A DNA stretch of 51,892 nucleotides, filler included, from Diploschistes diacapsis (lineage: Eukaryota): the NCBI GenBank assembly GCA_023645945.1. It is 3 parts of 3 records of this genome, joined end to end, with 100 filler letters (N's around TTAATTAATTAA, not from the genome) between each part and the next. Parts side by side here need not be neighbours in the genome. Positions count along the whole stretch, not along the records: positions 17,380 to 34,608 come from JALAIB010000462.1; 2 more parts are not named here. One strand, 5' to 3'. Below, one piece after another: positions 17,280 to 34,608 of this stretch. The translations under genes were made by a program, and so were the position numbers. Below the pieces are notes generated by a model. That model had not been told where the DNA came from. It did not search any database and saw only the letters and a list, made by a program, of their open reading frames with translations. The number at the start of each line of letters is the position of its first letter. Position 1 is the stretch's first letter.

Positions 17280-17379
17280 NNNNNNNNNNNNNNNNNNNNN
17301 NNNNNNNNNNNNNNNNNNNNNNNTTAATTAATTAANNNNNNNNNNNNNNNNNNNNNNNNNNNNNNNNNNNNNNNNNNNN
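17280..17379. other. Artificial contig-joining spacer
   Basis: 44 N + TTAATTAATTAA (stops in all six frames) + 44 N. An identical copy lies at 34609-34708. Confidence 0.97.
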
Positions 17380-17521
17380 TGCTGGAGCTGCGGGAGGGGT
17401 TTCTTGGTCAAGTGGGACGGGAAGGGAAGGGAGGAGCGGAACCTTTTTTGACGGCCTTTTGCTTGTCGGCTTTGCGCTGGGCGGCGGCCGGGTTGAGGGT
17501 CTTTTCCCGGTCTTTGGGCAT
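17380..17521 (-). CDS. 5' fragment of a WW-domain-binding protein 11 (Wbp11)-like splicing factor; remainder lost at the spacer
   Basis: ATG 17521 gives MPKDREKTLNPAAAQRKADKQKAVKK, then a GT donor at 17442. This matches my recollection of the fungal Wbp11 N-terminus (NPAxAQRKxxKxKxxKK). It is not in the ORF track. Confidence 0.65.
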
Positions 17522-18787
17522 GGCTTGTGAGGCGACTTGTGGCTGGGGGATACCTTGCTAGATGTAGGGTTTCCAAGAGGGGGGAGAAACGGTGGAGGGC
17601 TACTAAATTGACTAGGTGGGTTACAAGGCGTGTCTTTAAAAACTGTACAGCTATTATGCTGTTATACCAACTCCGTTATTGCAAGCGAGAAAGAAGTATG
17701 AGTCAGACAGCTCGTAGGGCTTAGCGTGCTTTTCTGGAATATATATACTCGGCCACCCCTCCTGCTCTGCAAACTTTCTTCTTCATACTTACCTTCTTGC
17801 ATTGTCCCAGGTCAAGATGTGGGATCAATACAAGACGAGTCCTTCATTGCACATCGAGGCGACAAGTCTTGTCGAGTGTCCTTCGGGGCCCTCGGCGGGG
17901 GAATTTTTGATGGTCTTCTCTTTCTTGGAGAATCTTTTCATCCAAGCTCGAACCTTGAGCTCTTCTTGGAGGGAAAGTCTTATGTGCTTACTACATGCAG
18001 TTGCCTGTTGTCTGTTGTAAGTAGATACAAGCGGATGGATCAAGTGGATGGTGCTGTCATGGATAGAAAGTTGAAAAGCAAATGTTGTGACGAGACGAAA
18101 GAGTTTTCATGGTCTATTGGTGGAGAGCCATAAGATGGAACAGGAAACCCCAAGGCTTGCTACTCAAGGGCACATGGGACCTCTGGCTGTTCTCTATCGC
18201 ACGTAGCTAGCTAGCTATCTATATTTTGACTCTCGGCGTCCCACTATTTCCTACTACCTACAGAGTAAGCTCGGATCTCTTGCCTACCCTTGTGTGTGTG
18301 TGTGTCACCGTTTCGTGTTGTACTCAGGCCTCCAGGAACCACTCATTGCTGTGGATGCTGGGTCCAAGGAGAGTTTGCAAAGGCGCCTGTGCAAGTCATC
18401 CGCTTCATCTTCCACTAATTGTATATATGTCTGTAATAATGCGCCGTAGGGTATCTACAGTGTAGTGAGGGGATAAGGGAACATGCCAACCAAGACCCGA
18501 GCACCGACGAAGCAATGAGAGCGAGTCCTCTGTAGCTGAGCAAGTGTACCAATTTAACAAGCTTGGATTGGGGGTGGCCGGGAACGACCCAAGTCGGAAG
18601 ACACAGTCAAGTTGTTTCTAGATTGAGTTGGTTGTGCTACCGGTACAAGACATGCTGGTCATTTCTCTCCTAGTCTTGCCGACACATTCTGGGCAATTGC
18701 CACCATCCTAGTACTCCGTAAATCCTTCCAACCATAAGTTAAACCGCAACACTCGGATCGTTCAAGCCTGCCAAACCCTCCAAAAAC

Positions 18788-20703
18788 TTAGTTGGCCATG
18801 TACGTGCTAGCATCGATGCCGCCTTCGGGGAATTCGCTGCACAATGTTAACCGGGTTTGGAAAGAGGCAGAGACGTGGGCAACTTACGGCAACGCAACAT
18901 CGAACCGCTTTTCAATCTGCTTGAGCACAGTCTGATCGTCCTCGCTGCTGACAAACGAGATACTAAGGCCCTTGGTTCCAAAACGGCCTGCACGACCGAC
19001 TCGGTGCAGATAAGAGTCGGCGTCGCCGGGCAGGTCGTAGTTGATAGCGAGGTTGATGCGCTCGATATCAATGCCGCGGCCAAAGACGTCGGTTGCAACG
19101 CAGATACGAGTCTGGAACTCCTTGAATTCCTTGTAGCGTTTGATACTGCTGGGCTATTAATGTATGTTCATACCATCAAGGCAGACTATGCCTACCGCTC
19201 CTCCTGGCTGACTCCTGAGTGCACCGCCGTGCTTGGGAAGCCGCATTCTTTTAGAATCTTGTCAAGCTCGGTGGCTCTCAGCGTGCTCTTGACGAAGATG
19301 ATAACCTGGTTGAACTCCAGAGTATCGAGGAGATCGTTGAGCTTCCGGTTCTTCTCGCCCTCACTCAATTTGATGTAGTACTGCTGAAGACCGTGGAGCG
19401 TGAGCTTGGTCTCGTCGTCTACGTAGATCTCCAAAGGATTCTGCATGAACTTCTTGCAGATGGGGCGGACCTCCTGCGACAGGGTAGCCGAAAACATCAT
19501 GACCTGTTTCTGGGTAGGTGTAGCACGGAAAATATCCTGGACATCGCGACGCATGTCTTGAATTTGATCAGCAAGGGCCCCAGTCCAGTGCAAGCCGGAA
19601 CATACCGATCTGGTCAAGCATCTTGTCACATTCGTCCAGTACAAAGACCTTGATGTTGGCTAGACGAAGCTTCTTATCACGAACGAGCGCATTGAGACGA
19701 CCAGGAGTACCGACAATGATATGGGGGTGGGTATCCTTGTTGGCGAGAGTCTCGACATCTTTCTGCATGGGCGTCCCACCGTAGAAAACGCCGGTCTTGA
19801 TCTCGGGCAGGTACTTGCTGAAGCGGTTGTACTCGTTCCTTATTTGGTACGCCAACTCACGAGTGTGGCACATGACGAGAACCACGCATTCTCCCGGAAC
19901 CGGATCGACTTGTTGCAGAGTAGTAAGCACGAAAACCGCAGTCTTGCCAAGACCGGATTTTGCCTGGCAGATAACATCGGTTCCAAGGATACCCTGAGGA
20001 ATGCAGACTTGCTGAACTGTGAGGTAATCGATGTCAGATTGTGATCGCAAAGAGTTTGAAGATATCAAGTCCAAAGCGTGCGTCCGTCCATCTCGTTTGG
20101 TTGAAACATCCCATATCGTAAAACATTGTCCCCACGTATTCTCTACTCGTCACTCGAGGTCTTTGTGCAGATCAACAAGCTCCGAGGCAACCCCTAAGGG
20201 TGAGCCGCATGCGAGGTTTGTCTAATGCTTAAAGACTTGCACCATAGTGTCTTCCTTCTGCTATCCCTTATAATATACACCAAGAGCTCTTAGCTGGTGA
20301 CGGCCCACAGCTGGCGCGCATGTCCTGCGTTCGCTGCGCCCCTGTAACAATTCCATGGAGACGCTTGCCAAGCAAAAAACTCTTGTTGCTGAGATGGACG
20401 GACGCTTTGGACATTTTCGAGACGACAGGCTGGGAAAAGAATGTTTGACTAACCCTCCGAAGGATGCTCGAAGCCGCAGTCCGTAATGGCGCGAAGCAGC
20501 TCAGGCTTCAACAAGAAGTCGCGGAATCCAGTGGAGTGAATGCCAACATAACTGCCCTTCGACTTGTCTGCGGCAGCTCCGGATACTGTGAGGTCACCTT
20601 TCTTTGCAGCACCGTTGGTCTCGGTTGTAGCTGCGGCCGGCGCGGCCTCGTTGGCTTGCAGCTCCTCGTCGGAGTAGTCAATGAGATCTTCCTCGTGAGA
20701 CAT
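18788..20703 (-). CDS. sub2: DECD-box RNA helicase Sub2/UAP56
   Basis: Exons 20703-20454, 20016-19606, 19556-19196, 19145-18888 and 18836-18788. Motifs: [45 protein letters not shown]. Confidence 0.96.
20069..20412 (-). repeat. Inverted repeat inside sub2 intron 1 (22-bp helix with a 4-nt bulge)
   Basis: GTCCAAAGCGT[GCGT]CCGTCCATCTC (20069-20094) is the reverse complement of GAGATGGACGGACGCTTTGGAC (20391-20412), apart from the bracketed bulge. Confidence 0.85.
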
Positions 20704-21166
20704 CTTGAATTCGTAAGAGATTGGTTAAGAGAACAGAGTAAAAATTCGGTTGCTGTAGACGGACAAAGGGCCCTGGTGATTGTGTGGTACGGTTTTGATA
20801 GAGGGATGGAGAAGAAATTCAAATTGATCGAAGAGGTTCAAAGGAACACGTATTGTCGCGCTTTCAATATGGGCTGATCAGCACTCAGATGTGGATGTCT
20901 GGATAAGCAGAGAGGGAGGGAAAGTCAACGATTGTTGAAAGGCTGGAGAAGGCTGAAAGGTTGAATGCGATGCAAGCGGAAGCTTCAAATTTTTTGCATC
21001 TTGACTTGCTAACCCTTTTAGGGTTAGTGCAGTTGACCTTCAATATCACTTCAACTTGAAATTGATTCACCGTGGTCACCAATGTCTTAAAAGATGTTAT
21101 TAGAGTGCAGTGTTGCTGGGTAGTACAATTTTGCTGTTTTTATTACTGGTACGAGCTCAAGGCACC

Positions 21167-21613
21167 ATGAAGTCGAAACCAGGATCGGGCAGTGTCCCTA
21201 ACAAGCACCTTCACTCCCGAGTAAGCTTCCTATTTCAAGCCGCCACTCTCTTAAACAAAACACGTGGGAAAGAGCCAGGAAAATGCAAGGGCTCAGAGAT
21301 CGATGAACTATATATACGAAACCCTGAGCTTGGGTCTGGCATCTCACGTCAATTGATCTCACACCTTCGTGGAGTATCCCTGAAAGCTCAAATGCGTCTA
21401 GCTCCTTCTATAAAGCATGCCATCTGCAAACGCTGCGATACGCTGCTGAAGGACGGCTCTACTTTGAGAACTTACGTCGAAAACAAGAGTCATGATAGGA
21501 AGAAGCCCTGGGCAGATGTACTCGTTCATGAGTGCACTCAATGTGGAACCATCAGGCGCTTTCCAGTTGGAGCGAAACGACAACCTCGCAGGCAAAAGCG
21601 TCCAGCCAAGTGA
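21167..21613 (+). CDS. rpr2: RNase P subunit Rpr2/Rpp21
   Basis: HLHSRVSFLFQAA and LRGVSLKAQMRL...KHAICKRC...ECTQCG zinc-ribbon pattern. Transcribed divergently from sub2. Confidence 0.85.
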   Translation: MKSKPGSGSVPNKHLHSRVSFLFQAATLLNKTRGKEPGKCKGSEIDELYIRNPELGSGISRQLISHLRGVSLKAQMRLAPSIKHAICKRCDTLLKDGSTLRTYVENKSHDRKKPWADVLVHECTQCGTIRRFPVGAKRQPRRQKRPAK

Positions 21614-21771
21614 TGAAACAGCTCAATCCAGCGAGCGTAACATGGCTTAGAGAACTGCGGGTTCAGCAGCTGCTGATAGAGCCTCATCGTGCCAACAGCA
21701 GAATTGATATTCATTGCACAGGGCACCGTGCAACGCCATCGGAAGGCACGATGCGGTAGCTGTCAGAGGCC

Positions 21772-23239
21772 TTAATTATCACCTTCTTCATCATCATCAT
21801 CTTCTTCTTCTGGAGCGTCCGCATTGTTCTCCCCGTCTTCCTCCGAATCATCTTCATCATCGTTGCTATGCTCCTGATCCGGATCAGGCATCACTACGCC
21901 GTTGAGGTAAGTAACCTGCTATCGGTTAGCCTGAGATCTTCTGGAACGTATATTCTAACTTACAAAAGGCGTCAGTGTCCCTAGGAGATCTACAACTTTA
22001 CCAAGACCTCCCGAACCCAGGACCTCATCATCTTTGAGCTTCCGGCCTATGGTATAATTACGAAGCCGAAGAAGCTCGATATCGAGATGATCTTGCGCAT
22101 AGCCCTAACACAGGTGAGACAAATAACGACCGATGTCGAAGATAAACTCTGACCTTTGGATGCCGCTTTAATGCATTCTCAGCATTATGCTCGCAAAATG
22201 TCTTTACCACTTTCTTTTCATCATCTTTGATTCCGCCAAAGAAATTCTTCCTTATCTCCCGATCCCTAAGCACACTTTTCAATTTCCTTGCCTTCCCGTC
22301 CACCGCTCTTCTCAATTTTCGTAGAGGCTCCGCTTCCGGACACCATAAACCCCCACCTACAAAACTATTACCTGGCGCAATTTGCACGTAATAGGCCGCA
22401 TATGGGCCCTTTCTTCCCGTCCTACTCCACGCCGCTGAGAAATGCGTCTTATATGGCGTCGGATCACTGCTAAATCTGACATCCCTGTATATCCTAAACA
22501 CCAGATCCTTTGGCGGTAGGTCTGGAATCGTCTCGTCCTTTTCCGTAAGTCTTTCAGTAACAGCTTCTACGAAGCTCTTCCAATCCTTCTCCGACTGGCG
22601 GAAATCCCTATCATGCACCTTCAGCCACGCACGCTCGTTGTTACGCTTCAGATCGCCCAAGAAGAGCAACGTATTCGGGTGCAGCGTATGGTCCTGATAC
22701 GGAGTCTTCCCCGGCGACCGTGCTCTAGGCAGAGTAATAAAGACCTCCCCTTCCCCCTCAACCTTAACACCTTCCTTCCACAACTCTTTATCCTTGGCGC
22801 TCTTGCCAGCAACACCCATAGCCGCGGCCGCGGAAGCAGGTACCAGCATTTTCTTACCCCTCCCTCCAGCGCCTCTTTTCTTTGCCTTCCCACTCCGACG
22901 AACGTCATCTTCCTCAGACGCATACTCCTCGCTCTCGTCCGCACTCGGCTCGGCCGAGGATACTGCGGAGGCTTCCTCGTCCTCGTAGCCCGACCCCTCG
23001 TTCTCGATCTCAGACTCGCTCTCAGCGACCGAGCCCTCGGTGTCTTGCTCAAAGTAGACGCTCTTTTTCGGCGTGGAGGTCTTGGTGCTGGCGGGCGTTT
23101 GCAAGGTGGAGTTTATGCGCTTCGACTGGCGCAAAGGGGTGACAGGGGATGCTGCGCGACGTTTGAGGGGGGTTGATTTGGTGGAGGCGGTTGCTGCGGA
23201 GGAGGTTGGTTTCGAAGTGCGGCCGCGTGGGCGGGCCAT
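21772..23239 (-). CDS. DUF2461-family conserved protein with low-complexity acidic termini
   Basis: Motifs FLGDLKRNNERAW, FRIYRDVRFSSDPTPYK, WSRTGRKG, GGGLWCP. Two 3' introns extend the ORF through GYAQDHLDIELLRLRN and VTYLNGVVMPD to TAA at 21772. Confidence 0.85.
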
Positions 23240-23989
23240 TGTTAGGACGGATGACGGGGAGTGGGAGGTTATGGGGGCCAGCTTGGAGTTAGGCTTGAAG
23301 TGCGATGACAGGGTGTTCTGTCGGAAAAAAGTGTTTTGGTTTCTTGAAGGGCGATTGTTGTTCGTCTTTTGTTACCCCTTGGTGAGCCCAGTGAGATCTA
23401 TGACCTCATTCAAGGCGGAACGCGACAACGCGTAGAATACTTCTAGTGGCTCTGAACGGGATCCAAGGACATAAACCCACAACAGTGAGCTTTGATGGTC
23501 TGGCACGGACCTCTAAGAGATTACGACCCTATCCAAGTGCACAAGTTACTACCCAGAACGAGATTCATATTTGTTTGTTTTCACGAGACAGGAAAACGGG
23601 AAAAAGTTGCTACGAGATGCTGCATTCAGCGTGAAGTACTTATCAGGGCAGCCCCAAGAAGGATATGCCCTCAAAGGCTAGCTTTAAAGACGCTTATTGG
23701 AGCTGAACCGTAAACGGATAGCCAAATTCAAATTACCCCATGCAGCGGATCAGAAAAGCAATTGTCGGAAACAAAGATAGCGATTCGTACTTGCAGGAGC
23801 AAGTGCCAGCCGTTTCTGGAACTGGCCCTTTGTCGAAGCAACGGCCAATCGAAATGTATGAATTCTGAATGAAATCTAGGACACTCTTTTCACTTTGGGT
23901 TGCTCATACTTTTACAGTCGGGATCGTTGCCATGAACATAGCCTCGATGGTGCGATGTCTCAGCTTTAGTCTCTCCAGTTGGGTTGACG

Positions 23990-24654
23990 ATGTTCTGCAT
24001 CATTGCTCTCAGCATTATTGCTAGTCTGTTTGGTGCTGAGGCAACAGAACCATTCCATGGCTCTATGCTGCTCGCCGCGCCATGGGGAAGTGCGGCAACA
24101 CTACCGATGCCTCTGCAAATCTTGCGGTGACCTTGTGGAGCGAAGCTAAATGCACCGGTACACCTATCTACGTGAATACATATTGCTCCCAGGCGAACCC
24201 CTTCACTTCGAACTATACGAGCATGCCCCTCAGTCGTGCCCTTGTGCAGAGTGAAGAAGTTTTTGCTATTAAGGGTGGCATCATACCTCATAAATCTTTC
24301 GACTATGAGCAACAGAGCATGGTTATGGGGAGTACAAATATGCATGTGATTATCTCCAGCCTGCAGTTAACAATTTCACCAGCCCCTATAATGGGTGCTC
24401 ACCGCTTGTCAACTCCACCCAAGCCACCTGCCTGGTGGTGGCCTCCACTGGTACACAATGTTTCAATGGGACCATGGCCCCTTAAGCCGGCCAAGGTGCC
24501 TTGCAATGCGAACGATACGGCGGGCTTCAACGCGGGCAACTATGCAGTGACTAGAGCACTCCCACATAGCGCTGCATCATCTTCGGCTACCGTACCAGGT
24601 TTAACTAGTACTGCATTAGTTTCCGCTGCTGCATCCCCATCGAATAGCGCCTAG
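23990..24654 (+). pseudogene. Possible decayed small secreted Cys-containing protein
   Basis: A signal-like segment MFCIIALSIIASLFGAEA starts at 23990. A frame change leads to AARRA-MGKCG...AKCTG...YCS. A further Cys-rich stretch (NGCSPLVNSTQATCLVV...QCFN) lies in another frame, and the tail is S/A/T-rich. Confidence 0.35.
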
Positions 24655-25505
24655 GCTAGAGCTTGCACGTTGATTTTTTGGAGACTTCAACGTTCCCTAC
24701 CACCACCACCGTCGTATAGTATAAAGCGAAGCTTGTTCAGGCAGGGTGGAGATAGCGGCGCCGACAACTCATCCAGTGGACCAGGTCTCTGTTCACTTAT
24801 CGAAAGCAACTTTAATAGCTATTGAAACCCTCTTAGGTCAAGAGGCAATTCCACTTTCCTTGGCCAGGTTCGATCTTCGTACCCATTTTGTCGTCAGCAA
24901 TATCTATCACGGAGTACTTAAAGCATTTGAGCTAATTCATGTCTTTCAGAAAAAACAGGGCAAGTGTACAGCTCTGGAATAACGTCTTATCCCGGGCAAT
25001 GAGATGCTCGCTGCTGCTCGATAACGCTCATTTGGGCCAGAAATCAGGTTGGTAGAAGAATTACGACTGTAAAACAAGGTAGAAGCTTCTTTTTCATATG
25101 TAGTGATGTGGTCTAGGAGACAGAGACTCGGATAAGGACGAGTCGACGTGCTCGAGTTCCTTCAAGTTCCTTTGCTTCTTATCTAGAAGGGTGACGTTAG
25201 ATCGGGGATGCCGTCCAGGGGTATTCAGATAGTAGTAGTAAGAGAACAGTATCTCTGGACCAGGAAAAGATTTTGATGCCTACAGCACGTAGGTATCGTC
25301 GCCCAGCTACCTATTACAGGTTCAACGAGGACACATGGCAGCAGGTGCGTCCACATTCAAGTATTAAAAAAATGGAGGTTGGTACCACTGAGAGGTAACA
25401 AATAGAAAAATAACGCTGCGAATGGTAATATCCTGCTGAAGTTGAGAAAACACTAAATTAAACCCCCCCCCTTTCCTTTCCTCCTCTTGCCTCCCGTAAT
25501 TCCCC

Positions 25506-27418
25506 CTACCTGTCCTCCTCCTGCGCCGTCGCTAGCGGCCTCATCGTCACCACGACATTGACGCCCTGCATCTTCGCCGTCGCGTTGCGCACCTCCTTGA
25601 GAATCTCTTCCATCCTGCTACTGCCCTCATAGATGTCAGGCTTGGCGCTGATCACGATCTCGTGCGTGACCTGGGGCCCGGAAACCGTATCGGAGGTCGG
25701 CGTCGTCGGCGCGGTGGACGACGGCGACCTCGTGGATCTGTCCTCTTCCGTGCCGTCCAGCGGCAGCAGCTCGTCGGCACTGTGCGAGAGTCCCGTTTTC
25801 TTTTCTAGCGGTGCTTCCCTCTCCTTCTCTGTCTTTGACCTGCCTTCGGACGCCGCCCGCACACCGGACGTCTTATCGAACACATTCTCCGGATCGTATC
25901 TCGTCTTCAACTCGACCAGTCTCTCGAAATTGGCCCCAAACGTCCGCTCCGCCTTCGTCCCCAGGCCGTCGTAGTTGCAATACTCCCCCAACCCCTCCAG
26001 CTCTTCTTGGCCATCCTGGTCCCTCCCATTCTCCTCTCCAACAACCCTCTTCAACTCCTCCATCGCCGTCCGTGTAAACTCCCTACAGATGGGATCATAC
26101 CGCTCGCTTCGCCACCGTGGGATGATCATTGCATTGCTATGCCTCGCCCTGTTCACAAACGCCATCTCCCTCGCCCCCACTCCACACACCTTGTCCAGCG
26201 GATAGAACTCGAACAGGCACGCCCCGCTCTCGCCCGCCTCCGGGCACGCGTTCGCGACAAAGTCTTCGTACAGCTCCAGCACGCGCTCGAACGCCCGCGG
26301 CGGCAGCGCGCCCTGGTAGCTCGCGCCCTTGCTGACGCGCCGGCCCTCGCTGCTCGCTGCCATGGCCAGCACCTCGTTCATGGCCGGGTAGGGCATGCTG
26401 GCTAGCGTACTCCGGATCGGCGGAACCGGCGCGTCGGCCAGCAGCGGGGCAAAGATAGACGAGCCCTCGGATGCGGGCCCGTCGTGGAAGCAGCAGGCGA
26501 AGATGATGCGCTTCCCGGGCATGAAGGGCGGGGTGGTGAAGCCGCAGAACATGGCGGTGCGGCCGTCGGAGGACTGCTGGATCCTGTTCGCGAAGGTGAT
26601 CATGTGCGAGATCGCGGGGCCGGAGGGCGGGAAGACGACCATGCCGCCGTATACTGGATCCGGCTGCGGGTGCGCGCGGAAGGTGAAGGAGGTTATGATG
26701 CCGAACATGTGGCCTGCGCCCCGCACGGCCCAGAAGAGGTCCGGCTCTGAGGTGGCGGAGCAGGTGGCGATGCGGCCGTCCGCAAGTACGATCTCCGCTG
26801 AGAGTAGGTTATCGATAGCGAGCCCGTACCGGCCCGATAGCCAGCCGAAGCCGCCGCCGGTGGTGTAACCTGCGACGCCGGTGTTGTTGACGGTGCCGCC
26901 GACGAGGGAGAGAGAGTGTTGGGCGGCAGCGACGTCGATTTCACACCAGAGGGAACCGCCGCCACAGGTCAGGGTTGGAGGTTTGGAGGTAGCGGAGACC
27001 GAGATGTGGTTGAGGCGGCGCAGATTGATGAGGAGACCGCCGTCGGTGGAGGAGTCGCCGGATGTGCCGTGGCCGCCTGCACGATTGTCAGGGCGCTGAT
27101 GAGGGAGACGGTGCGTGGAGGGCTTACCGCAGACGGAGGTTAGGGGGATGGAGTACTGGGTTGCAAGCTTGATGGATGTTGCCACGTCTTGAGGGGAGGT
27201 GGGATAGACTACGACGCCCTTGAAGATGGTTAACACAGGCCACTAGATATTATATAGGCGGAGCTGTGTCTTCTCCAGATGGAGACACTTACGGCTGGCT
27301 TCTCGATTGACGAGGCCCATCTTTTCAGACCTTGCTTGTATTCTTGGCTTCCAGCAGTAAATACCTTTTCGGTACCCAGCACCCTCTGCAAATCAGATAT
27401 GAAATATGACAAGGCCAT
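25506..27418 (-). CDS. FAD-linked oxidoreductase (VAO/BBE-like, 6-hydroxy-D-nicotine oxidase-like)
   Basis: Exon 1 is 27418-27293; a further intron near 27078-27127 restores CGGHG (His usually used for covalent FAD). Motifs GVAGYTTGGGFG, GLAIDNL, DLFWAVRGAG and the BBE-type tail YCNY...LKTRYDPENVF. Confidence 0.9.
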
Positions 27419-28359
27419 CTTAACAAAGAAACAAAATCAATATCACGCTTTCAGAACTTTTAAGAAACATAGGACTTGGTAACTCACATTTGCTATATAT
27501 CATAGCTCAAAGGTCGCGGCGCCTGGATAAATCAACGATAACATGGAAAACAAGCCGCTCTCGCATGACATCCAACCCAAGACCTACATCTAATTGGTGG
27601 CAAGCCATGCCTGCACCTATGGTGGTGGTGCCGATGCCGAGGTGCAATCCTGTAGGAACTTCAACAGCATTCCTAACCCTGCAAGGCAACCTCACGAGTT
27701 CAGGAATTTAAACATTGGCCTCCCAAGATGCAGCTCGGACGGCTTGCCATCCGAATCCGCTCATACCGTAGACACATCTAGTGGCAAACAGATGCATCGT
27801 ACAAAGTGAATACGATAATTGTTGATCCCGTGGCCTTTTAATTAGTGCAGCACTCACGACGCTGGGAAAATATGGCTTGATGGCCAGACTTTCGCCCTGA
27901 AAAAAAGCAATAAACAGAAGCGGCTATTGGCCTAGGCCCAGGCTTTGCTGCGCTGTCCCAAAGCCCCAGAAAACAGCGTGACTAGTCTCAAGCAGCGATA
28001 ATGCGACAAGCATATGGAAAAGAGCTATCGGCAGACAAAGGCGTCGGATAGCCTAGATTGAATTCCTTCGGCTCGGAAACTTCGGAAGAGGAATTTTACC
28101 TCATCCGGTCGTTTGGCTGACTCAGCCGAAATATTAGTCTGTTCTTGGAGACAAGGGTAGAAAGCTACAGGCAGCTTGTTGAGTAGAGACGACTCATATC
28201 GGCCTTTATAAGCTCTGCTGCAGCGCACTTAGATGCTTGGGTGAACAGGCCGAACCATAACTCCTCTCTTATGCTGGACCATCATGATGACTTTCGCGCG
28301 AATTTCTACCGCCCAGGAAATGCTCGGGATTAAACAAAAATGGCCAGCGGACTTAGGAT

Positions 28360-29713
28360 TCAGATCCTATGCGTATTGTGATGAGTTGTCCAGCTTCTGG
28401 CGTTTGCCTCGAATTGTCGATAGTCAGTTTTGTGCAGATGTGCAACTTCAAGGATCGAAATATCTGTCGCGCTCGGAGATTGAAGGACGGTGAGCATGGT
28501 AAGGAGCAAATCCCAAAGAGACCAACTGGTTGCCACTGGTCTTTTAAGATGTTCATGCATATCGAGCCATGTGCATCAATGTTGGGATGATAGACATTTC
28601 TAAGAAGCGGCATAGAGGAGGGACTAGGGGATAGCGATTTGGAATGCGAAATTGGACACAAAAGATTCCGTTCTCGTAGGGTGTGTCCGGCCTTTGAAGA
28701 TCCCGAGCAAGTCTGATATGGAGGAGTTGATGACCGAGAGGCTGGTAAAAGGTGGGGCGGACTCGGAGCGACGGATCTCCGCTAGGATTGACGTTGAGCT
28801 ATGTGGTCTATCGGATGATTCTGTAGCAGGGCCTCCTCATGGCCCTCTCTGCTGCGGTCAACAAGAGTCCTGAAGTGGCCGTGCAAGTCATGCTCGAAAA
28901 TGGATGATCGAGCAGTCAACGTTGAGGAAGACTTATTTGAATCGCTTGGAGCGCTGTCGTCCAAACCACCAACCACCGGGGTGAGTTGTTGAGCACTTGG
29001 TGACAGAGTCAGGAATGGACGCCGATGATCTAATCGCACATGCGGCGAGCACTCAGCTTAGGCGCCTTGACGGCAAGAGAAGCTTTCCTCCAACACAGAG
29101 TGCTCATATATCTGGAACTATTTCTAGCTCCACTCGAGACATTGCTAGCATCATTTCAGTCGCATAAGCCCTTTGTTTATGCAGTGCAATGTCTGAACCT
29201 GTTGCGGTATCTAGATCATCCATGAGTTCCTTGAGAAGCCGCAAAAAGGTCAAGAAGTCTGTAGCTTTATCAATCCGCCAGGTTCTTAGGCTCAAGCCAT
29301 CCTTGATATCTGAATAAATGGTGCGGATAATAGAGCATGGTGCAACATGCGGAACACATGGTTTAGCTTGCTCTTACTTCGCTCAAGTGCGTCGCTGTAG
29401 ACTGGTAGCAGACCGTACTGCTCCACCAATCTGTCTTCGTCTTGTAGAATTGATCGGATTCTTGTAGCCGTCTGCTTGGCTGAGCCCACTACCTTCTGGT
29501 TGTTGTCCTCTGAAGCCGCTCTGCTCCAAAAGATTGTCAAGCTTCAGGCACAGTGACTCGTTCCCTGTTACTCCGTCATGGTGGACAACGAAGTTGCGAA
29601 AATCGTTCAGGCATTTTGCTGGTTTCTTTTATCAAGCTTTCCTTATTCATTCGACTTTTTGGGATTTTGCCCTGCTGCGAATCAGTTTTACTGGACACAC
29701 CAAGGTCGTACAT
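28360..29713 (-). pseudogene. Frameshifted ubiquitin-conjugating enzyme (E2) domain with a long decayed N-terminal region
   Basis: PDTPYENGIF..F.IPNRYPLVPPLCRFL, VYHPNIDAHGSICMNILKDQW and LLTMLTVLQSP...FEANARSWT are split across frames between about 28360 and 28790. The upstream limit is approximate. Confidence 0.75.
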
Positions 29714-30039
29714 TAGCGGCAGCAGCCTCTGGGTTGCAATAGAAGAAAACAAAATTTCGTCTCAACAAAGGTGTGCATAATAGAGACAGAACGAACATGA
29801 CATTGGAATTTTAATCACATGATTTCTTCTTTGAGATTGCGTGTCTGGTATCTACAGTAGCTGAAGCTCTACCTCGCTGCTACTATACTACCATACATCC
29901 CGGCCTTGTGCTGTTGCCTGAGGAGCTGCGTTATGATCTCTACTTGAAGCAAGTGCAGTTCAACGGTTCCCGTTCGTTCATACATTCCATATTATTGGAT
30001 CCCATTGGAAGGTCTCATCTGATTCCCTACTCTCCATGG

Positions 30040-30560
30040 TGATCTCGAGCCAGCGTGAAAAACCAACCGGGAGCCCACATCCGAGCACTTTAGCCCTGCC
30101 TACCCCTCGGATGCCTGAGAAATCCAAAAGGGCGGAAATGTCTGAAACAGCAAAACTCGCCTGCTACGGCTCGACCTCAAGTTCTTCGATACCAAGCCCT
30201 TGTGAGGTCGTCGCTGCTCCAATAGGGATCACAGTCCAAGCAAATGGCGACGCAAAACCTGCGTATGAAGGCCGAACAAGCTGCAGATAACACAGGCTGC
30301 GAGGAGTCTACCAGATACGGGAGGCTGTTGAAAAGGGAAGGGTGAACTTGGAACTGATTCAAACGATGCAGAAGAGGCGTCGCTTCGAAGCGGATCTGTT
30401 TCGAGACGCGTAGGATGGATGCGGAAATGCTTGGAGAGGTCTTCTTATGCTCGTTTTTCTTGTAGGCAGTGCTCGGAAGCTTCGTCGTGTTCGTGAGGAG
30501 AAGACAATATGTTTCATTGCGGCTTTCTCCTGGGTAGCTGAAGAAAAGGGAAGCACTTCT
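30040..30560 (-). pseudogene. Decayed F-box-like fungal hypothetical protein
   Basis: PFLQLP/ESRNETYCLLL, ILRVSKQIRFEATPLL, IRRFCVAICLDCDPYW and EELEVEP*QASF...GIRGVGRAKV, with frameshifts and a TAG at 30164-30166. Confidence 0.6.
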
Positions 30561-31173
30561 CGTACTTACAATGGCCTAGGTCTTTTGTAAAGTTGAATGT
30601 CGCCTGTGAGGAATGGGATAATTATGCCAAAATTAAAGTGAATAGATCAGCATCCTCCTAATGTTGGATATTGCCTTTCTTTCTTAAAGCCAGTTCATGA
30701 ATCCTACTGCCATAACCTTTAAAAGTCAAACGAGGCCCAGTCGACAGCTTGAAGATATCTTTGCTATTGTATGCTTTATAGTGCTTATAAGCCGGTGAAA
30801 ACGGAAACACATATCTCCAGAACCTGATCATATTTCATAAAGTTAAATTCAGAATTTCTACATCACATCATCCGTTGAATTCACGGGGATCCAAGCCACG
30901 CAGCATGCACCTGTAGTATGTTCGTATGTGGGCTCGCCTCAATCACGTACCGACATCTCCTCTGTCCAACAATGCCAATGATCACAAATCAATTCGAATA
31001 GGTTTGGAAGCCAAAACAAAACAGACCTTGAGGGTTCACTTATAGCCGAGAAACCCGGCCGATAGTCCCGATAAGCTTCAAATAGCGTCATTATCCACCG
31101 GTCCAGGTAGGCTTGAGGTATAGTATCTTACCGCCTCGCTCACTGTTTTCATCGTTGTAGCTGAAGTTTATAG

Positions 31174-33958
31174 ATGCCATCTACAACTCGCTCCAGACGC
31201 GGTCGATGGCAGGATAGCTCTGACAAAGCGTTTCGCCCAAGCTTGAGCAGGTCCGACGAGAAGCCGGCACCGTCACCGGGAAAGCGTCAGAAGACGGGCC
31301 ACATCTACGAAGCACCTTCAACGCCCTTGCGATCGCAGGTAACACGGCCCGAGAACATGTATAGCTTTACATCAAACCTCGTCGATCTGACAAGCTCGCC
31401 GACAAAATCGTCGACAGGCTCACCTTCGTCACGAAAAATCACAAACGGGGTCCGCTTGACAAACGTTGCACCGAGCAATGGAGCTAAAAAGTTTTTGGTG
31501 AAGAACTTCAAGAAAACTTCGAAGTCAGACCCAGAAAATTACTTTAGCCAGGTCTGGGGTCAGCTTGACGAAGCACTGGAAGCCATCTTCAGCCGCGATG
31601 TCAAGCCTTTCTCCATGGAGCAGCTTTATAGAGGCGTGGAGAATGTTTGCCGACAGAACAAAGCCCCGAGCCTCTTCCAAAAACTACAGGCGAAGTGCAA
31701 GGACCACATCATCAACAGAGTCAAACATTCCCTTATCGAGGCCACTCAAGGGTTGTCAGATACGGACTCGCTTAGATCTACTACAGAAGCTTGGGCTACA
31801 TGGCGGAGGCAAATGGTATGGTTTGGATTGTCTCTCAAGTTAAAAACCTGCTAATCGTCCTAGACAACCATTCGTTCAATTTTTTACTACATGGACCGCT
31901 CTTACCTGCTGCATTCTACGACTCAGCCGTCAATTGATGAGTATGGAATCGCCTTGTTCCGTGACAATGTGTTTTCCGACTCTGCTTTGAAACCGAGAAT
32001 CCTTCAAGGTGCTTGCATGCTAGTCTCCAACGATAGGGCAGGAAGTTCCGAGGAGGGCTTCGCGCCGACACTGTTCAAGGAGGCAATAACAATGTTCCAT
32101 GTCCTCGCCGTGTACACGAAGAGCTTCGAACCTAAGCTTCTTGGAGAGTCTCAGGCCTTTTTCGATGATTGGGCTTCCAAAAAGAGTTCTGAGCTGAGTC
32201 TTACAGACTATGTCAATGAATGTCATGCCCTCTTCAAGAGTGAAATCCAGCGCTGCGACGTCTTCATCCTGGACGAATCAACAAAGAGGAACTTAAACAT
32301 TCAGATGGAGAATCACTTGGTTATGGATCATGAAGAACGACTGGTTGACACTGTGGATGTGGTAGAGCTTATGGATGGGAACAACCTGGACACTTTGAAA
32401 GATCTCTACAGTCTCCTCGAGAAGAAAGGGCTTGGCGAAAAGATTCGGGTACCATTCGAGGAATACATAAACTGCGAGGGCGAGTCAATAGTCTTCGATG
32501 AGAAAAGGCAGTCCGAGATGGTAGTCAGACTGCTCCAATTCAAGCAAAAGCTTGATACGATGTGGGAAACAGCTTTTAGGAGGAATCAGAATGTTGGATA
32601 CGGCCTGAAAGAGGCTTTTGAGACGTTTGTGAATAAGACCAAGAAATCAGACACGACTTGGGGTACGGACAATGATAAACCAGGAGAGATGATTGCGAAA
32701 TACGTCGACCTCATCTTGCGAGGTGGCTCCAAGGCTATCCCGGATTCTGTTGCATCTCCGATGCCTGCGCCAGCAAATGAGGATGAAATGGACGAGGAAG
32801 AGGCAGATGAAGATTCTCAAATTAACCGGCAACTGGATCAGGTCCTTGATCTGTTCCGCTTCGTCCATGGGAAAGCTGTTTTTGAAGCATTTTACAAGAA
32901 GGACCTCGCTAGACGCCTCCTAATGAACAGAAGTGCAAGCGCAGATGCGGAAAAGTCTATGTTGACCCGTCTCAAGTCCGGTAAGTTCTCACGGCTCTGC
33001 TTCGTAGCAAAGGTTAATAATTCAAGAATGCGGAGCAAATTTCACCCACAACCTCGAGCAAATGTTCAAAGATATCGAACTCGCCCGGGAGGAAAACAGT
33101 TCCTACAAAACCATCCTCGAAGACAGGCATGAAAAGCCCCCCGTCGATCTCAACGTCAACGTGCTCTCCGCCGCCGCCTGGCCGACATACCCAGCCGTCG
33201 AAGTCGAGGTTCCCAGAGACATCCAAAAGGCATCTACTGACTTCGAGCGCCATTACAAGCTTAAGCACACAGGTCGAATGCTCGAATGGAAGCACGCGCT
33301 AGCGCACTGCCAGATGAGAGCCATCTTCCCCAAAGGCCCCAAGGAGATTGTCTTTTCTTCCTTCCAAGCCATTGTAATGCTCTACTTTAACGAAAAAGCC
33401 GACGGCGAGTCGGTCACCTACGAAGAGCTTTCTAACGCGACCAAGCTCACGGACGACGAGCTCAAGCGTACCCTTCAGTCCCTCGCCTGCGCCAAGTACC
33501 GCCTCCTCACCAAATCCCCTCGCGGCAAAGATGTCAACCCTGGCGACAAGTTCGTGGTGAACCTGGGCTTCAGTGACCCGAAGTATCGCATCAAGATCAA
33601 CCAGATCCAGCTCAAGGAGACGAAGGAGGAGAACAAGCAGACGCACGAGCGGGTGGCGGCGGACCGGCAGTACGAGACGCAGGCGGCGATCGTGAGGATC
33701 ATGAAAGGCAAGAAGAAGATTAAGCACGCGTTGCTCATTACTGAGGTGATCAACGCGCTCAAGAGTAGGGGCGCGGTAAATCCGGAGGATATCAAGAAAC
33801 AGATTGAAAAGTATGTGGCCCTTATCCCTTATTCTCCCTTCCTTCCTCTTTTAGTGTGATCTGTTCTGTCCGGATATGGCTTACACCCGGCTTTCAGGCT
33901 TATCGACAAGGACTACATGGAAAGGGCGGACAATGGGTTCTATGAATACATTTCCTAA
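31174..33958 (+). CDS. cul4: Cullin-4 E3 ubiquitin ligase scaffold
   Basis: Introns 31816-31863, 32981-33026 and 33811-33897. Motifs EQLYRGVENVC, RSIFYYMDRSY, FEAFYKKDLARRLL, LQSLACAK and the Nedd8 site QAAIVRIMK. Confidence 0.93.
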
Positions 33959-34307
33959 GCTGAAAATACTCCGGGTCAATCAAACAAGAGGACTTGTCAG
34001 CGCATATGCGACGCTTCCAGCGGGTACACTTCCCGAGCCGAATGTTAGGGCTCATGTAGCTTTTAATCGGTCAACATGAATATGAGACAATGAAACACAA
34101 TGTTAGCATAGCAGTTGGAATATTAAACACTTGCAGGAGGAAGCAGAATGAATTCCGATACTTCTCATGATCTATTCTTTCGATTCGAATACTCTATCGC
34201 TCTGGACGCTCTAATACACCAAAAAAAAACGCGACGTGCACAGACTGCTCTCTTTTTTCGACGAAACCCCCCTTTCAAGCCCTTTCCCCCTTCTAAAAGC
34301 CCACGGA

Positions 34308-34608
34308 CTAGGAAAACACCCCCCTCCTCTTTGATTTCTTCACATCAATCTCATCTTCATACTATACCACGAATAATCATTAGCACCACTGATCCGTCTT
34401 ACAACCCGGGAGGAGGGGGGGACCCAGAAACAAAAAAATATAAACGAGAAACGGTGGAAAAAAGTAAGTAAAAAAAAAAACTCACCGCCCTAAACCCCAC
34501 TGCCTCAACCAGCACCACAAACCCCTCTACCAGTTCCGCCAACACATCCTCCATTTCCTTCTCCCTCTCCTCCATCTCGCCCTTTCCCATCCCCCTTCCG
34601 TTCCCGTC
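34308..34608 (-). CDS. 3' fragment of an unidentified protein; 5' part lost at the spacer
   Basis: ...EDVLAELVEGFVVLVEAVGFRA is spliced (GTGAGT at 34485, CTAAT branch, TAG at 34362) to YEDEIDVKKSKRRGVFS*. Confidence 0.55.

Follow-up and report, generated by a model that had tools for sequence, protein, structure and literature searches.

A conserved long-range helix in the exceptionally long first intron of the sub2 gene of Diploschistes diacapsis

Sub2/UAP56 is an essential helicase that links splicing and mRNA export, and its dosage matters in yeast. We analysed the sub2/UAP56 gene that is contained in a stretch of 51,892 nucleotides from Diploschistes diacapsis (GenBank assembly GCA_023645945.1; hereafter termed the window), which consists of three parts of three records of this genome, joined end to end with 100 filler letters between each part and the next. 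Our main subject is P1, a predicted long-range helix within the first intron of this gene. The gene lies in the part that derives from record JALAIB010000462.1 (positions 17,380 to 34,608), is read on the minus strand and has five exons (Table 1). The protein encoded by exon 2 carries the Pfam DEAD domain and matches Sub2 of S. cerevisiae (PDB 5sup, E 9.7e-63) as well as human DDX39B. A first-pass annotation of this DNA had pointed to a difference in size between intron 1 (437 nt) and the other sub2 introns (about 50 nt). Our gene model bears this out: the three other introns measure 49, 50 and 51 nt, and intron 1 is about nine times as long. To our knowledge, SUB2 of S. cerevisiae has no intron at the position of this intron 1.

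The first-pass annotation had also proposed that a 22-bp inverted repeat joins the region just after the donor with the region just before the branch point. A repeat search in intron 1 recovers two overlapping inverted repeats, one with arms of 20 nt (20069-20088/20393-20412, 90%) and one with arms of 15 nt (20080-20094/20391-20405, 100%). Combined, they form P1, a helix of 22 bp with a 4-nt bulge in its 3' arm at approximately 20077-20080. P1 is present in both the minimum free energy fold and the centroid fold of the window's intron 1, and the fold energy of the intron as a whole is ordinary (z -1.13). When intron nt 7-110 are scanned against nt 330-415 for local duplexes, P1 reaches -40.9 kcal/mol, compared to -20.4 +/- 3.2 kcal/mol in dinucleotide shuffles (n=200), none of which is as good (0/200, z -6.4). 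The proposed repeat is thus confirmed. Taken as a contiguous helix, P1 is separated from the first intron base by 41 nt and from the branch adenosine by 34 nt.

Table 1. Features of the sub2 gene and of its first intron. Positions are those of the window, except for helix P2, which is given for a related locus.
Feature	Position	Strand	Remarks
sub2 exon 1	20454-20703	-	ATG at 20703; ends ...EHPSE plus first base of split codon; found by tblastn in 63-65 related loci
sub2 intron 1	20017-20453	-	437 nt, phase 1; GTTAGT ... CTGAC ... ACAG; splits the codon after ...EHPSE
Intron 1 donor GTTAGT	20448-20453	-	non-consensus, pyrimidine at +3
P1, 5' arm	20391-20412	-	intron nt 42-63; conserved core CGUCCGUCCAUCU at 20392-20404
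P1, 3' arm	20069-20094	-	intron nt 360-385; conserved core AGAUGGACGGACG at 20081-20093; bulge at ~20077-20080
Best internal helix of the window's intron 1	20176-20290	-	nt 164-195 with nt 248-278, -26.2 kcal/mol; encloses the candidate micro-exon; distinct from P2 of the relatives
Candidate 26-nt micro-exon	20241-20266	-	motifs present; unsupported as exon
Branch-point motif CTGAC	20033-20037	-	branch adenosine 20034, 17 nt upstream of the acceptor; relatives have CTAAC, CTGAC or CTAAT at the same place
sub2 exon 2	19606-20016	-	helicase domain 1; query for relatives
sub2 intron 2	19557-19605	-	49 nt
sub2 intron 3	19146-19195	-	50 nt
sub2 intron 4	18837-18887	-	51 nt
P2 (example)	L001:2620-2808 and equivalents in ~25 related loci		pairs GAAGUCUC/GAGACUUC plus GGGCGGCC/GGCCGCCY or GAUCCUGG/CCAGGAUC

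Contigs from four DNA sequencing runs could be compared with the window directly. A near-identical strain (run X2) shows 6 differences over 1361 nt; intron 1 accounts for three of them, whereas the P1 arms and the candidate micro-exon discussed below are free of differences. This contig is too close to the window to be informative. In another close strain, from a rock metagenome (run X3), one extra T is found within the P1 bulge (window 20078-20079), which leaves the pairs intact and, being seen on a single contig with a depth of 3.1, may be an error. The contig of run X4 covers 19621-19771 only. In a more distant organism, C (run X7), a contig has 613 letters for a stretch of 569 in the window, so that its intron should measure approximately 481 nt. 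Inside intron 1, the more distant contigs do not align with the window at 80% likeness.

Relatives that are more informative were obtained from metagenome contigs matched by the exon 2 protein, of which the best 80 of at least 464 matches were used. It is to this set alone that the term relatives refers below. They are 78-90% identical over 136 residues, and tblastn searches with exon 1 allowed us to recover 63 loci with both exon ends. In 60 of the 63 loci an intron is found at the identical codon and in the identical phase, and it is always 437-703 nt long (a looser count gives 62/65). Introns 2-4 of the relatives are 50-93 nt long, or absent. Thus, the long first intron is an old and stable feature that is not peculiar to this genome. 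The three remaining loci (L021, L035 and L070) lack an intron at the intron 1 site and at the other sub2 intron positions. L021 matches the exons of the loci L018 and L031-33, which are genomic, with 88-96% identity but contains none of their introns, and therefore behaves like the spliced transcript of a close relative. All three contigs look like assembled transcripts showing the exon 1-exon 2 junction.

The window and the 60 intron-containing loci together provide 49 distinct intron 1 sequences, which were aligned by MAFFT (alignment A1). The mean column identity of A1 is 23%, and the columns of the P1 arms are at least 90% conserved. Five conserved blocks are found, and only five: GTYAGTCA at the donor, CGTCCGTCCATCT on the 5' side, AGATGGACGGACG on the 3' side, TCTAAC(ATCG) in the branch region and TACAG at the acceptor. 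Of these, the two internal ones represent the core of P1 (GUCCGUCCAUCU / AGAUGGACGGAC), which, besides the splice signals, is almost the sole alignable sequence of intron 1. Of the 49 introns, 35-40 contain exact 7-mers of the 5' arm (31 in the case of CGTCCGT) and 33-38 contain those of the 3' arm (26 in the case of AGATGGA). Moreover, one or both P1 arms are present in nine additional loci for which exon 1 was not recovered; they were not found in L025 and L027, where 198 and 545 nt of upstream sequence were searched, allowing one mismatch.

Covariation in the stem had been put forward as a check on the helix in the first-pass annotation, and compensatory changes are indeed present. Over the 14 pairs of the P1 core in the 49 sequences, 89.0% of 680 cells are paired, compared to 25.6-54.6% in controls in which the 3' partner was shifted by 1-3 columns. 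In A1, 24 cells across 5 pairs have both partners changed; examples are UAUCCGUCCAUCC/GGAUGGACGGAUA in L022 and AGUCCGUCCAUUU/GAAUGGACGGACU in L041, and L001 has two G-U wobbles. None of 500 shuffles reaches the number of cells with both-side changes, the percentage of paired cells or the covariation score of P1. The number of pairs with a both-side change, however, is equalled in 122/500 shuffles, which shows that the covariation of P1 is concentrated in a few terminal pairs and that the inner pairs are nearly invariant. The standard arm motif is found in 43/49 introns, was not found in six, and is of doubtful placement in two more (L045 and L075). Each of these eight introns nevertheless has a long-range helix of 18-27 bp with an energy of -29.9 to -43.9 kcal/mol; in three of them a variant of the core is recognisable, the other five having diverged. 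Judged by these comparisons, P1 is real and under selection.

The same pattern bears on a reading in which P1 has no function as RNA. The approximately 344 nt bounded by the inverted repeats could be the relic of a miniature inverted-repeat transposable element (MITE) or of an introner-like element, with the arms as terminal inverted repeats, or else the arms could be paired protein-binding sites that act at the level of DNA. In favour of such a source, introner-like elements in fungi are long and structured. However, the arm changes are mirrored in the opposite arm, and the arms occupy an orthologous position in every relative, unlike the remainder of the intron, which cannot be aligned. This argues against a relic, since a neutral relic would not keep its termini only. 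Furthermore, exact 10-mers of either arm occur at most twice per record in the 413,690 bases searched, and no further good match to the arms is found elsewhere in the window; the arms are thus not a dispersed repeat in the sequence compared. Finally, the ends of the arms show no sign of a target-site duplication. We consider an origin of this kind very unlikely.

The donor of intron 1 is conserved and weak. The 45 distinct contexts that start with GT comprise 24 GTTAGT and 21 GTCAGT, meaning that the +3 position is a pyrimidine in 45/45, whereas in introns 2-4 of the same genes it is a purine in 137/145 and a pyrimidine in 8/145. Inside the 49 introns (25,645 nt) the consensus donor GT[AG]AGT is absent, compared to 7.0 +/- 2.7 expected copies, and 0/200 shuffles are as low, although, the intron sequences being related, this depletion does not amount to 49 independent observations. 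It looks as if cryptic donors were selected against beside the weak true donor. Moreover, when intron 1 is retained, the first in-frame stop is encountered at codon 2 (25 introns) or at codon 4 (16 introns), i.e. in 41/49 introns.

Taken together, these results suggest, with a probability that we put at about 0.58, that sub2 intron 1 is an old, selected, long and intrinsically weak intron whose removal depends on P1, and that this dependence sets or possibly regulates the output of Sub2. P1 would bring together two segments, one approximately 40-60 nt past the donor and the other approximately 30-55 nt upstream of the branch point. In doing so it would loop out about 300 nt and leave donor and branch point approximately 60-75 nt apart, which is the geometry of a zipper stem, a structural splicing enhancer. 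Since the donor GUYAGU is non-consensus in every relative, splicing should be sensitive to the formation of P1. Translation of RNA in which intron 1 is unspliced would stop within a few codons of exon 1, resulting in an unproductive transcript, and because of this early termination the arrangement would set, and may regulate, Sub2 output. We infer, therefore, that P1 promotes splicing and that the arrangement sets or regulates the level of Sub2. The notion of the first-pass annotation that splicing is controlled through the helix is, accordingly in general outline, a reasonable reading, given the selected P1, the exceptionally long intron in a helicase gene and the conserved weak donor. That a 13-nt helix core, a non-consensus donor and an intron about tenfold over-long are kept across divergent relatives is unusually clear comparative evidence for a functional intron structure.

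Zipper stems have been defined as helices between donor and branch point that comprise 6 bp or more and no more than 5 bulged nt, with offsets of at least 10 and at least 20 nt and a total linker of 42-85 nt (PMC12350175). The P1 helix of the window has 22 contiguous bp and one 4-nt bulge, and its linkers measure 41+34 nt if the contiguous helix is considered, or 33+30 nt in the duplex prediction, which includes four extra outer pairs, adding up to a total of 63-75 nt. As modelled, it thus has the position of a zipper stem in the published sense.

A number of points weigh against P1 as a splicing enhancer. Its core is almost invariant, so that most pairs are without covariation, the changes that do covary being located at the helix ends, and the relatedness of the intron sequences means that the shuffle controls overstate significance. 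The strand test, which compares G-U with A-C cells in 12 inner pairs (28 vs 14), is weak and not decisive. As both arms are near-invariant, they may be read by their sequence, either by a protein or by another RNA, and not solely as a helix. Regarding geometry, only 26/43 relatives fall within 42-85 nt by an automatic measure; the others are below 42 nt, where over-extended duplex predictions include doubtful outer pairs, or above 85 nt, as is the case for a group with introns of 680 nt (99-128 nt). Moreover, the 42-85 nt range was modelled on the spliceosome of S. cerevisiae, and some zipper-stem mutants of RPL28 showed lowered retention, indicating that zipper stems are not always enhancers (PMC12350175). 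Finally, if shortening of the intron were all that mattered, the loop could be deleted. The fact that approximately 300-500 looped-out nt are kept, together with the additional structures P2 and P3 described below, suggests a function that the enhancer reading does not cover.

Within the loop, the first-pass annotation had placed a 26-nt micro-exon with a GC donor. It would act as a poison exon that is skipped when the helix forms and that is included, leading to nonsense-mediated decay, when the helix is unwound. The sequence motifs behind this model are found where they had been reported, namely GCTAAG at 20294, TAAG at 20270, GATAG at 20265, GCAG at 20261, the purine-rich GAAGGAAGA at 20258 and GCAAGT at 20240. 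The length of the interval is not a multiple of three, and it lies within a local helix of the window's intron. It also aligns loosely with a semi-conserved purine-rich block that follows P3 in one group of relatives in A1, and the enhancer-like run may thus be a remnant of that block. However, a comparable arrangement, for which we required a donor-like G[TC]RAGT, an AG at a distance of 15-80 nt on its upstream side and a branch-like motif preceding that AG, is present in 249/2000 shuffles (12.5%) of the intron, and an equivalent AG/donor pair occurs in 0/48 related introns. The internal donor-like hexamers of the relatives are a few scattered GC[AG]AGT at non-homologous positions, and none of the conserved k-mer blocks in the 49 introns holds an internal donor. 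In addition, the three transcript-like contigs join exon 1 directly to exon 2, which concerns the dominant assembled form only. Moreover, fungi seldom use GC donors, and GCTAAG, the branch-like motif, deviates from the CTRAY consensus. The micro-exon is hence hardly credible to us. The regulatory logic attached to it, in which the helix favours skipping and unwinding favours inclusion, is doubtful as well: the comparative data fit a P1 that favours splicing out of the entire intron, intron retention being the off state.

The interior of the loop is structured differently in different relatives. In approximately 25 of them a second long-range helix, P2, connects nt 95-130 with nt 240-270 (-36 to -46 kcal/mol), and the two alternative pairings listed for it in Table 1 are a compensatory difference between groups. 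Over 18 hand-defined pairs in 17 sequences, 78.9% of the P2 cells are paired, compared to 30.6-49.7% in slid controls, and nine pairs show both-side changes, a number that is reached in 1/500 shuffles. RNAalifold returned no consensus structure for the MAFFT alignment of the P2 region of the 17 sequences, probably as a result of a one-column shift between the groups. In one group there is, moreover, a hairpin, P3 (L001 intron nt ~140-160; A1 columns ~513-545), of the form CUGUA-UUUCGAC-UGCAG, whose 7-nt loop is conserved and whose stem has the compensatory variants CUACA/UGUAG and CUACA/UGUGG. P3 may be a protein-binding site.

These structures raise the question of whether P1 is the closing stem of a functional domain and not a splicing device, the domain of approximately 300-330 nt being either a functional RNA derived from the excised intron or a platform for proteins. 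The conservation of P2 in many relatives and of P3 with its loop would be in line with such a function, as would the distance between the P1 arms, which is alike in many lineages. P2 and P3, however, are not universal: the intron of the window has neither of them, apart from a degenerate P3 remnant, and the 680-nt group has other helices. Rfam 15 yields no match, neither in window 19900-20600 at an E-value cut-off of 10 nor in 16 related loci at a cut-off of 1, and no C/D or H/ACA box arrangement was seen in the intron by eye. As P1 and the splice signals alone are common to all relatives, P1 would be the most constrained element, and its fixed distances from donor and branch point fit a role in splicing. 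That P1 merely closes a functional RNA or a protein platform therefore seems improbable to us.

If P1 is an enhancer, its formation might itself be controlled. Sub2 is an RNA helicase that acts at branch-point recognition and in export, and feedback control of splicing by Sub2 is plausible. Such a switch would work as follows. Excess Sub2, another helicase or an RNA-binding factor would open or block P1, upon which splicing would fail or shift to GUCCGU, and the resulting RNA with its early stop would be degraded, so that Sub2 is held at a set level. All that supports P1 as an enhancer on a weak intron also supports this switch, as do the early in-frame stops of the retained form. Moreover, GUCCGU in the core of the 5' arm (20399-20404) resembles the true donor GUUAGU/GUCAGU(CAU) (20448-20453), and the 3' arm is therefore able to pair weakly with the true donor region. 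The median energy of this pairing is -9.55 kcal/mol, compared to -5.65 kcal/mol for shuffled donor regions, and in 19/42 introns it is at or below the level of 10/200 shuffles. GUCCGU could be a decoy donor or the site of an alternative pairing. On the other hand, the pairing between 3' arm and donor is weak and does not covary with changes at donor positions +7 to +9, and it is the sole candidate for a conserved alternative structure exclusive with P1, as known from the RPL7B intron; no such structure was identified. DEAD-box proteins, in addition, unwind short duplexes locally, and a helix of 22-36 bp and -40 kcal/mol is a poor substrate for them. There are precedents for this type of control in a plant DEAD-box system (bioRxiv 10.64898/2026.01.23.701338) and in RPL7B, which is autoregulated by blocking a zipper stem (PMC12311795). 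A switch of this sort is possible, but we think that it is rather unlikely.

The same idea can be extended to a fungus-wide homeostat of SUB2/UAP56, in which P1 would serve as the sensor on a weak, long intron and excess helicase activity, of Sub2 or of a partner, would open P1 or prevent its formation. Opening of P1 would expose GUCCGU and free the 3' arm to pair with the true donor. The intron would be retained or mis-spliced, an in-frame stop would follow within 2-4 codons, and the RNA would be discarded. The looped-out domain with P2 and P3 would, in many lineages, provide a docking site that confers specificity. Because the pairing of the donor with the 3' arm is weak and without covariation, we keep this homeostat at a low probability. 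We also considered, by eye, whether the 3' arm might instead pair with the branch region, but dropped this alternative, as CAUCG follows the branch point in a minority of the introns only.

Two further observations concern the surroundings of the gene. Upstream of sub2 lies a divergently transcribed open reading frame (ORF; 21104-21613, plus strand) that encodes an RNase P Rpr2/Rpp21/SNM1 subunit domain (Pfam PF04032, E 7.6e-22). At approximately 17336-17380 the window contains a run of N, which appears as X in every ORF translation across it.

No description of how the level of Sub2 is set in filamentous and lichen-forming fungi was found in the literature searched. Likewise, searches for autoregulation through a Sub2/UAP56 intron and for the arm sequences, covering papers that can be read without a subscription, revealed no published description of the sub2 intron element. 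The matches for "sub2 intron" concern the SUB2 protease of Plasmodium, and an arm 10-mer has a lone fungal match, which is to a beta-tubulin intron. Li and Breaker (2017; PMC5640933), who screened fungal introns systematically for structured RNAs, mention no helicase, SUB2 or UAP56 in their main text. Provided that P1 acts as proposed, the sub2 intron would show control of splicing by RNA structure in intron-rich fungi, and sub2 may be the second case, independent of plants, of a helicase gene that is regulated through the structure of its own pre-mRNA.

The plant case is that of the DEAD-box helicase genes DRH1/RH46, in which a conserved RNA structure, the DEAD element, senses the helicase and shifts splicing to non-coding variants (bioRxiv 10.64898/2026.01.23.701338). 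What it shares with sub2 is a conserved RNA structure within the pre-mRNA of a DEAD-box helicase gene. The differences are that the plant helicases are DDX5-like while Sub2 is UAP56-like, and that the genes belong to different kingdoms.

Long introns in genes of this functional class are also found in yeast. DBP2 is a helicase gene that reportedly has a long intron and is subject to negative feedback. YRA1, which encodes an mRNA export factor, has an unusually long intron as well, and there it is used for negative feedback (PMC2864733). Both belong to the Saccharomycotina and both cases are based on experiments, and their cis elements are not known to be a single conserved helix that spans from donor to branch point, unlike P1 of sub2.

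In its logic the sub2 intron resembles intron 1 of RPL7B. Owing to its length and to one suboptimal core signal, that intron depends on its zipper stem, and autoregulation acts by preventing the stem from forming, via an alternative structure (PMC12311795). The sub2 intron combines the same properties, a length of 437-703 nt and the donor GTYAGT in 45/45 contexts, with a stem that would compensate for them, and this logic permits repression by preventing the stem. It differs from RPL7B in that its weak signal is the donor, with its +3 pyrimidine, and not the branch point, and in that its product is a helicase and not a ribosomal protein.

Finally, P1 can be compared with the zipper stems of S. 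cerevisiae in general, such as that of RPS17B/RP51B, which have been surveyed transcriptome-wide (PMC12350175). In both cases a long-range helix, predicted in that of P1, connects the donor-proximal with the branch-proximal part of a long intron. The lineage that hosts the sub2 intron normally has introns of approximately 50-60 nt. The yeast stems are reported to show only 20-30% sequence conservation between Saccharomyces species and are often found in few orthologues (PMC12350175). The core of P1, in contrast, is almost invariant, even though the relatives that keep it diverge by 10-22% in an exon whose protein sequence is highly conserved. Thus, while its predicted geometry is that of a zipper stem, the near-invariance of its core makes P1 an unusual member of this class.

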